This document shows, piece by piece, positions 60,609-63,804 of a DNA stretch of 64,000 nucleotides (the stretch's first letter is position 1; each line of letters opens with the position of its first letter). The notes beneath the pieces were generated by a model. It saw nothing but the letters and a program-made list of their open reading frames with translations. It was not told the origin of the DNA and did not search any database. Source of the stretch: Octopus vulgaris (taxonomy: Eukaryota); assembly GCA_951406725.2 (NCBI GenBank), contig OX597832.1, positions 53,940,001 through 54,004,000 of the forward strand, in the 5' to 3' direction. The position numbers were made by a program, and so were the translations under genes.

Positions 60609-62045
60609 AGAACCGTTAGTATACCAGACTAGCTCGTGACGGCATTTCTTCCGGCCTTCCGTTTTGAGTTCAAGTTCCGCCGAGGTAGATTTTTGCCCTT
60701 CGTCTTTTCGGGGGTCGATAAAATAAATACCAATTGAATACTGAGGTCGATTTTATCGACTTGTCTCCTTCCCGAAATTGCTGACTTTGTAGGAAAATTT
60801 GAAAGAGTATTATAACAATATTTATAATATTTTACAGGAGTGGCTGTGTGGTAAGTAGCTTGCTAACCAACCACATTGTTCCGGATTCAGTCCCACTGCG
60901 TGGCATCTTGGGCAAGTGTCTTCTGCTATAGCCCCGGGCCGACCAATGCCTTGTGAGTGGATTTTGTAGACGGAAACTGAAAGGAGCCTGTCGTATATAT
61001 GTATATATATATATATATATGTGTGTGTGTTTGTGTGTCTGTGTTTGTCCCCCCAACATCGCTTGACAACCGATGCTGGTGTGTTTATGTCCCCGTTACT
61101 TAGCGGTTCGGCAAAAAGAGTCCGATAGAATAAGTACTAGGCTTACAAAGAATAAGTCCCGGGGTCGATTTGCTCGATTAAAGGCGGTGCTCCAGCATGG
61201 CCGCAGTCAAATGACTGAAACAAGTAAAGAAAAAAGAATATTAATCCATCGTGTATAAATACGTATTATATTAAACGTATTAACACAGAACTAAACCAAG
61301 GCTTTGTCTGACAGTAACAGCAGTTAGACTAAAATAATCACTCACTTATATTAGAAAAACAGCTGACTCTGAGTGAGTAGCATCAAGTCCAGCCAGAAAG
61401 TTGTTGCATATACTTATTTCTTGATCTGTTTACATCGAAATTCTATCCCTCGTTTTACTGTATAAAGTTCAACATTTGTTATTTTAGACAAGATAATTTT
61501 TACCCTTTTCACACATTCCTAATTATTTCACACTATTTACAAACGGTATATTTTGTCATCTGAGCATGACATTTATTTTATAAAAACCATGATCAAATTT
61601 ACCGTATTATGTTATAATAGAAGATATTTTAATACAACTAAACTACAAACATCTTGGTACCATTTGCTTTCGTTTACAAGACATTTTCTTTGTTCCTTTT
61701 CTGCTATTTGATCTCCGTACACATAAGCAATTCTAAGTAGGTGTTAAAGACATATTTGAAGCTTTATGTTGCATAAATGATTTGAAATAAAACGTCTGAT
61801 GTATGCTTTATTATCTTTGTTAAAAAATAGGCTGTTTACTGGGAATTTAGCTGTTAACAGATAACATTCGTGTTCTAGTTAGAAATCTGCTGCAACAATG
61901 TAAAATGACAATATATTTATTTATTTTTATCTTTCGTCGTACTAAATACAGTAGTCTTGTCCTCGTGTTTCATCTGTGACTACAAGGTCATGGTAAGAAC
62001 AACATCAACGACGATTACAGCGACAACAACGACACCAACAACAGC

Positions 62046-62689
62046 GGATCTTTACCTTTTGACCGCCTCAATTACGCTAAGAGTAAAAGATGTTTTACAG
62101 CGATCCCTCGTTTATCGCGGTAGATTGGTTCCAAGACCGGCCGCGATAACTGGATTTCAGCGAACTAGGGACACCATATTTACAGTATTTATTTAACGGG
62201 TATTTGGACTTTTAAAACCCTCCCTGAACTGTTAACAACCCACCCATTACAGTAGTCTATTAATAACAAGGACAACTGTTAAGCAATAACACTCTAGATT
62301 TTAAAAAATAGAGATTGTTACTGTTACACAGGCCAGATTACAAAATAGAAAGCTGTGATTAGTCGTTTCTCTCTCCATTGCACCAATCACAGCCCGTCTT
62401 AAGTTCAAATACCCCTGTATATGCTTTTTTGCGATTTTACGCTTGTTTTGTTGTTCCTAGACTAGGAAATAACATTTATTATTAATATTTCAATGGATTT
62501 AATGAAAAATTTTAGGTGTTCATATATATATATATATTTAAAATCCGCGAAGTCGTGAATCCGTGATAGTTGAACCGCGAAGTTACGAGGGATCACTGTA
62601 TATGACACGTTCTACATGTGTCCGAAGTTAGAAAGTGTTTAGTTACAAAAAGTTACTTTTTAAATCTGTCGGTCAAAAGGTAAAGATCC
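62046..62689. mobile_element. Deleted GGATCTTTACC foldback element carrying a nested MITE
   Basis: Ends are GGATCTTTACCTTTTGACCG / CGGTCAAAAGGTAAAGATCC. Confidence 0.85.
62098..62598. mobile_element. Tigger/pogo-like MITE
   Basis: TA|CAGCGATCCCTCGTTTATCGCGG ... CCGCGAAGTTACGAGGGATCACTG|TA. It interrupts the host motif GTTTTA-TATGACAC. A similar left end lies at ~42386. Confidence 0.85.
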
Positions 62690-62805
62690 TATAATTTAAC
62701 ATTTATGGTGAGTGATGAAATTACTTCTAATTCATTTAAGTAATAATATAACTAATCCTTACTTAACGTAGACATTTACTAATTCACGTCCACGGTTGCT
62801 GTTGT

Positions 62806-63495
62806 GGATCTTTACCTTTTGACCGACAGATTTAAAAAATAATTTTTTGTAACTAGACACTTTCAAACTTCGGACATGGTAGAATGTGTCATATAAAACA
62901 TGTTTTACTCTTAGCGTTTTTGAGAAAAGCTTATAATTACGAAGTTATTTCACGTTAAAGTTGTCCTATTTCGGTAATTTCAACCAATCAATGACGTGTA
63001 TTCAGCTGAATAAAATTACTGCTGCCGTTGTTTGTCAACAACTATCGGCGGTGTATATTTCGTTTGTCACTGTTATTTATGACAACCTTAACACTAAAAC
63101 CCTAACCCTCTAACCCTAACCCTAAAACTCTAACCCTAACACCCTAACCCTAACCCTAAAACTAACCCCCCAAACCCTAAAACCTTAAAGCTAAAACCAG
63201 TACAAACGCACGAACGATGTCATAAATAACAGTAACAAAAGAAATATACACCGCCGATAGTTGTTGTTGACAAACAACAGCAGTAATTTTATTCAGCTAC
63301 ACGTCATTGATTGGTTGAAATTACCGAAATAGGCCTAATTTAACGTGAAATAACTTCGTAAATATAAGTTTTTTTCTCGAAAATGCTAAGAGTAAAAGGT
63401 GTTTTATATGACACATTCTACCAGGGTCCGAAGTTTGAAAGTGTTTAGTTACAAAAAATTATTTTTAAAATCTGCCGGTCAAATGGTAAAGATCC
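62806..63495. mobile_element. Foldback element with ~280-bp arms and (CCCTAA)n-rich loop
   Basis: Arms ~62806-63084 and ~63218-63495 are reverse complements. The loop contains CCCTAACCCTAA repeats. Confidence 0.9.
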
Positions 63496-63804
63496 AAATT
63501 ATAACTTACAAAACAAAATAATTCGAATAAGCAACTAGGAGTATTTAATTGGGAGTTAAAATCTCAAATAAAGCGCAAGCATACCTCAGTTTCGTTTCTT
63601 GTTACGCTTTTTTCGATTTTGTGTCGTTTTGTTTCTTTTCTTTACGAAATAAACCTGAACTTCAGTCGATTTACGTCGGTCTCAGCGGACATATTTAAAA
63701 GCATAAGCATTTAAAAAAGAAAATACCCCAAAAACCAATACTGAAGGGGAAAACTAAAAATGAAATACATGAGAAAATATGTACAATCTATTGAATAGAT
63801 ATAT

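Follow-up and report, generated by a model that had tools for sequence, protein, structure and literature searches.

The 116-bp spacer between two inverted-repeat elements in the distal part of the window (the whole 64,000-nucleotide stretch of Octopus vulgaris contig OX597832.1 that was analysed) was, judging from its flanks, in all probability inverted, a reading to which we assign a probability of about 0.93. It is the simplest reading because the 8-mers bordering the elements are exchanged and reversed, and because the family to which both elements belong (family A) makes 8-bp target-site duplications (TSDs). The features of the locus are as follows.

62038-62045, plus strand: target-site copy a (ACAACAGC), outer flank of element 1 (flank comparison)
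62046-62689, no strand assigned: element 1, an internally deleted family-A copy with its 20-bp outer end (62046-62065) joined to approximately 122 bp of inner arm (sequence comparison)
62098-62598, no strand assigned: nested 501-bp inverted-repeat element, high copy, with a TA duplication at 62096-62097 and 62599-62600 (repeat analysis)
62690-62697, minus strand: target-site copy b, reversed (TATAATTT) (flank comparison)
62690-62805, minus strand: 116-bp spacer, putatively inverted, single copy by genome search (flanks and genome search)
62798-62805, minus strand: target-site copy a, reversed (GCTGTTGT) (flank comparison)
62806-63495, plus strand: element 2, a full-length 690-bp family-A copy (sequence comparison)
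63084-63198, plus strand: AACCCT-repeat core of element 2, which sets its orientation (sequence comparison)
63496-63503, plus strand: target-site copy b (AAATTATA), outer flank of element 2 (flank comparison)

Both elements begin with GGATC and end with GATCC, and the 116 bp between them consist of 100 bp plus the two inner 8-mers. Reverse complementing the inner flank of element 2 (62798-62805) yields exactly the outer flank of element 1 (62038-62045), and the same relation holds between the inner flank of element 1 (62690-62697) and the outer flank of element 2 (63496-63503). Lengths from 4 to 13 were tried; the exchanged, reversed flanks matched at 8 bp only, and neither element possessed a direct flank match at any length, so that the pattern described in an earlier, sequence-only reading of this DNA was recovered exactly. 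Comparison of 442 real family flanks from different loci gave 12 exact 8-mer matches in 96,965 comparisons (1.2e-4) and 182 with at most one mismatch; from this empirical null a double exact match is expected by chance at approximately 1.5e-8. Flipping 62690-62805 restores two 8-bp TSDs, as had been proposed, while the accompanying suggestion that the flip also continues the AAC-rich flank is weak, just one AAC being gained.

Family A is approximately 650 bp long, with arms of approximately 280 bp around an AACCCT core, and its terminal 19-mer occurs exactly 1,127 times in the genome. With its non-coding sequence (short, chance-like frames), terminal inverted repeats (TIRs), TSD and 1,127 exact ends it fits a miniature inverted-repeat transposable element (MITE). 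From 72 loci, 41 two-ended copies were scored for TSDs; 34 of these carried an 8-bp direct duplication with at most two mismatches, 19 of them exact, while 7 bp and 9 bp were found in 3/41 and 2/41 copies. The test set beforehand, that this family makes 8-bp TSDs, was thus passed. The arms of element 2 are approximately 280 bp long and 90% complementary, and the element differs by 5.6% from the majority sequence of 30 family-A copies. Element 1 has lost its core, for which reason its orientation is not readable, and the internal deletion, whose junction pattern occurs once in the genome, has removed most of the informative sites. The nested 501-bp element, presumably Tc1/mariner-like from its TA sites, would have arrived later than element 1. 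Neither the deletion nor the nested element figured in the sequence-only reading. Telomere-like AACCCT/TTAGGG runs form the core of family A and of its sister, family B; a similar run lies at 14866-14955 of the window.

The elements are likely to be Merlin-type MITEs since their GG ends, 8-bp TSD and TIR length fit the definition of that superfamily: terminal 5'-GG, an 8- or 9-bp TSD and TIRs of 24-462 bp (PMC8101967). Merlin/IS1016 MITEs thus have in common with family A (arms of approximately 280 bp) the 5'-GG termini, the 8-bp TSD and a TIR within that range; they differ in that no transposase gene with GGATC ends was found among the 20 best loci described next. Merlin-type transposase is plentiful in the genome (150 matches to PF12762, DDE_Tnp_IS1595), and among the best 20 of these 150 loci none was bounded by GGATC ends, nor did the proteins of the PF12762 loci that were read match inside any family copy retrieved. 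Many Merlin-type transposase frames of approximately 300 amino acids without stops were seen in L031-L050; several of these, L048 among them, have GGCAC-type ends on either side and an 8-bp duplication.

The ancestral orientation of the spacer is deduced from this one genome. Genome search with the spacer returned a single match, the spacer itself, and hence no paralog. The left flank and junction of element 1 gave AAC-repeat matches only, and on the right flank a repeat starts approximately 80 bp from the junction; neither search yielded the ancestral orientation. The left junction of element 1 appears without differences in the contigs of three of four public runs (61750-63050 compared), and the spacer bin 62718-62761 has zero depth in all four, such holes being evidence neither way. 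The region is repeat-rich, the frames of at least 60 amino acids at 60000-64000 are short and chance-like, and no gene was found near the putative 116-bp inversion.

A search for further pairs with exchanged TSDs was made in the genome, a close pair being defined as a right end and a left end (exact 13-mers) lying 10-400 bp apart. Elements 1 and 2 are the only family-A close pair at this distance; two other family-A pairs, on C1 and 2.8 and 3.8 kb apart (L134, L135), are not swapped. Family B is approximately 420 bp long, 77% identical to family A over the first 212 bp, has 17,343 exact ends in the genome, and is tenfold larger than family A. It furnished 113 close pairs, compared with 10.5 expected under a uniform distribution. 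Of these, 112 were examined (one on C29 was left out) and 87 had all four ends located. Both TSDs were direct in 42, one was direct in 34, and neither direct nor swapped flanks were found in eight; a further pair had a single imperfect swap and two were doubly swapped. The swapped share of scorable family-B close pairs is therefore approximately 2% (2/87, spacers 10-400 bp). Twelve mixed A-B close pairs were found as well, seven with four ends, and none of the seven was swapped. The genome-wide scan that had been suggested accordingly produced two more TSD-swapped pairs, both in the sister family, and the statement that the family generates rearrangements holds at a low rate and on a small scale only: one pair in family A and 2/87 in family B. 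At L116 a single swapped match lies beside a direct TSD and was treated as chance, and the one imperfect swapped match at L198 is ambiguous.

The two swapped family-B pairs are these.

L230:698-1844, C26 near 7220500: swapped pair with a spacer of 272 bp, the two matches having 0 and 1 mismatch
L194:974-1363, C17 near 13089113: swapped pair with a spacer of 97 bp, both matches exact, one with a 2-base offset

From their sequences, both pairs look like sister copies. The L230 copies are inverted and have nine non-majority states in common (positions 18 to 399), and no other copy among 130 combines as many as eight of them; their sister score ranks with the highest 0.5% when set against 8,328 unrelated pairs. 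The L194 copies have an unusual short form in common, in which both sides carry the same end type. Short forms (<250 bp) with this end pattern number 3 among 225 two-ended copies counted, and the only one below 200 bp is the first L194 copy, the second falling outside the mismatch limit of that count. The L194 spacer is single-copy in the genome, without a paralog, while that of L230 sits in an older repeat. In the paralog L267 the bases after the reversed spacer match 7/8 beyond the TSD in the right flank of L230, and three more of the nine paralogs shown agree partially with that flank. L267 weakly supports a flip at L230, since the host repeat is palindromic, which leaves the left junction uninformative, and a further deletion is needed. 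Sister scoring of the full-length family-B close pairs indicated that most close neighbours are unrelated copies, with 7/46 inverted and 1/11 direct pairs scoring sister-like (above the 95th percentile). As 7/46 inverted pairs score in this way, the chance of finding the one swapped full-length pair among them is p ~0.15.

How the spacer came to be inverted is a separate question. The odds are about even that it was done in one aberrant transposition step which also gave the second copy. After replication, both sister chromatids would carry one element at an identical position; transposase would bring together a left end from one chromatid and a right end from the other, and the resulting hybrid would be inserted into a target approximately 100 bp away on the cut sister. 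One orientation of insertion would yield a-[E]-b'-Y'-a'-[E']-b, which is exactly the observed layout, after which element 1 would have lost its middle and taken up the TA-flanked element. The sequence-only reading had taken exchanged, inverted TSDs as the signature of ectopic recombination. They are not specific to it: according to PMC2775673, ectopic recombination and hybrid element insertion give strikingly similar products with the same TSD pattern, the copies being chimeric under the former and identical under the latter. What stands of the proposed transposon-mediated inversion is the inversion, supported by the 8-bp TSDs and the two further swapped pairs; recombination as its mechanism is not established. 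We lean to a single transposition step because both swapped family-B pairs are sister-like and 0/7 mixed-family pairs are swapped, the latter being informative since A and B copies cannot be sisters. At the locus itself, the inner arms of elements 1 and 2 share the subfamily state 112G, carried by 37/117 arms and lacking from the outer arm of element 2. These inner arms differ at 11/120 sites, and their sister score of -1.4 is not significant, with an upper-tail fraction of 0.28 among 6,744 unrelated arm pairs. Against a single step, the two arms of element 2 are discordant, their score of -4.3 placing them fourth from the bottom when added to 42 same-locus arm pairs, and the inner arm of that element has 3'-type states at 219-241, a motif present in 3/28 other 5' arms; both properties would also be seen in a chimera that arose by recombination or conversion. 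The family-B cases are two in number, L194 needs a 2-base offset at one junction, and no empty site was seen.

The strongest alternative, at rather less than even odds, is the model of the sequence-only reading: two ordinary insertions arose approximately 100 bp apart, either independently or through a local hop, and the arms that face each other then underwent homologous exchange; the spacer would have been flipped by a crossover accompanied by a conversion tract or by a double template switch across the hairpin. The palindromic arms of family A are a recombination substrate in either orientation, and pairing of the inner arms encloses the spacer in a long stem (71 nt at 94%; -84.9 kcal/mol for 62599-62896). 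Close pairs also arise often without sisterhood (113 in family B against 10.5 expected, and 12 mixed pairs), and the inner arm of element 2 looks foreign to its own outer arm and closer to that of element 1 (-4.3 vs -1.4), the pattern expected if element 1 had converted it in one direction. With a clean reciprocal crossover located beyond position 122, however, the inner arm of element 1 should match the outer arm of element 2, and this is the worst match of all (16/121 differences, score -5.6, upper tail 0.79); no rare changes common to the two inner arms were found as a crossover marker. A reciprocal crossover deep in the arms is disfavoured. Later recombination also appears rare in family B, where 45/46 inverted full-length pairs with approximately 420 bp of homology are not doubly swapped, and L230 and L194 resemble sister copies rather than chimeras of unrelated ones. 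One-way conversion from element 1 fits the markers of elements 1 and 2, as does a discordant-armed parent that then underwent hybrid insertion; these markers alone do not decide the mechanism, and it is family B that tilts the balance. Fresh sister copies produced by a local hop could also have recombined, with the same result. Within one family-A element the arms differ by 8.9%. The divergence of the inner arms of elements 1 and 2 (11/120) is alike, and for this reason the event would be about as old as the activity of the family; the inversion is thus likely to be old, as well as tiny.

Two further explanations deny the inversion itself. It is very unlikely that the assembler mis-oriented the spacer between the two inverted repeats. 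The spacer does lie inside a strong hairpin, but the 2.8-Gb assembly consists of 227 contigs and 42/87 close pairs were assembled with both TSDs direct; moreover, the arms differ at 11/120 sites, a degree of difference that long reads would resolve. Chance, or a preference for palindromic targets, is more improbable by far and was rejected. A weak symmetric bias does exist in the family flanks, of which 248/467 have A at position 2 and 254/467 have T at position 7, yet this is already contained in the empirical null (12/96,965), two matches are needed, and both direct TSDs would also have to be lost.

Exchanged TSDs at transposon-flanked inversions are already established in Drosophila (PMC2775673, PMC3698922). 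Galileo of Drosophila buzzatii (PMC2775673) resembles the present locus in its two long-TIR breakpoint copies with exchanged and reversed TSDs, and in a secondary insertion nested in a breakpoint copy, as in element 1. It differs in belonging to the P-superfamily, with 7-bp TSDs and chromosome-scale inversions as opposed to an 8-bp TSD and 116 bp; its inversions were proven by non-inverted chromosomes and chimeric copies, whereas ours is read from the arrangement of one sequence. The likeness of the family to Galileo that had been drawn thus fails in TSD length, and Galileo was rejected as its identity. The BuT5 MITE of the Drosophila repleta group (PMC3698922) is likewise a non-coding element implicated in inversions; these are chromosomal and the element is associated with the P element, so that superfamily and scale are both different. 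As described in PMC2775673, hybrid element insertion, or sister-chromatid alternative transposition, should leave two inverted sister copies with exchanged TSDs and without any sequence being lost. L230 and L194 look like this, and elements 1 and 2 are compatible with it. The present locus is an old, natural one in a non-autonomous family, the sisterhood of its pair being conjectural; by contrast, hybrid element insertion has been studied chiefly in laboratory crosses that use active, autonomous elements, in work on the P element and Ac/Ds. A search of open-access papers found nothing on this element family.

The close pairs of family B are biased in orientation. Inner-end types classified 78 of the 112 pairs as inverted and 23 as direct, with 11 unclassified, whereas 49 direct pairs are expected from the end frequencies (p 1e-7). 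Among full-length pairs 46 are inverted and 11 direct, a count that excludes five tandem or nested loci, mostly direct. This is the opposite of what is reported for Alu, which is reported to lack close inverted pairs (PMC3215922). Possible causes of the excess are that direct pairs were lost by deletion, or that local insertion is biased.

Taken singly, the locus of elements 1 and 2 is a rare and tiny flip of a known kind that shows no sign of function and lies in repeat-rich, non-coding DNA. What makes it of interest is the count across the family: with more than 17,000 ends, a family allows the origin of inversions to be counted in a single genome. Exchanged TSDs together with the genealogy of the copies are a clean marker of transposase error as against later recombination, a distinction which the work on Galileo had to settle case by case. 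It is possible, and we propose it only tentatively, that a Merlin-type MITE system has left a natural fossil record of sister-chromatid hybrid-element transposition in the micro-inversions at elements 1 and 2, L230 and L194, each bounded by inverted sister copies. Inverted close neighbours outnumber direct ones three- to fourfold in the family, contrary to Alu, and a count of pairs like these three would show the frequency with which cut-and-paste transposases themselves make rearrangements in a wild germ line.

Other arrangements of family B were also encountered. L084, considered as an inversion, was rejected since its flanks (a=c, b=d) indicate a tandem duplication; at 923-2289 three copies of a 175-bp unit alternate with two elements, each junction between units being occupied by a family-B copy. 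L196, L205 and L210 are likewise tandem duplications whose junctions hold family-B copies, and alternative transposition or unequal exchange could give all four. At L114:1223-1297 (also L039:2959-3033), L087:1517-1583 and L202, facing family-B ends enclose a short spacer of 67-75 bp which is itself a hairpin, forming a larger palindrome. The window itself holds a family-B copy at 43777-44188, the flanks of which show no direct 8-bp duplication.
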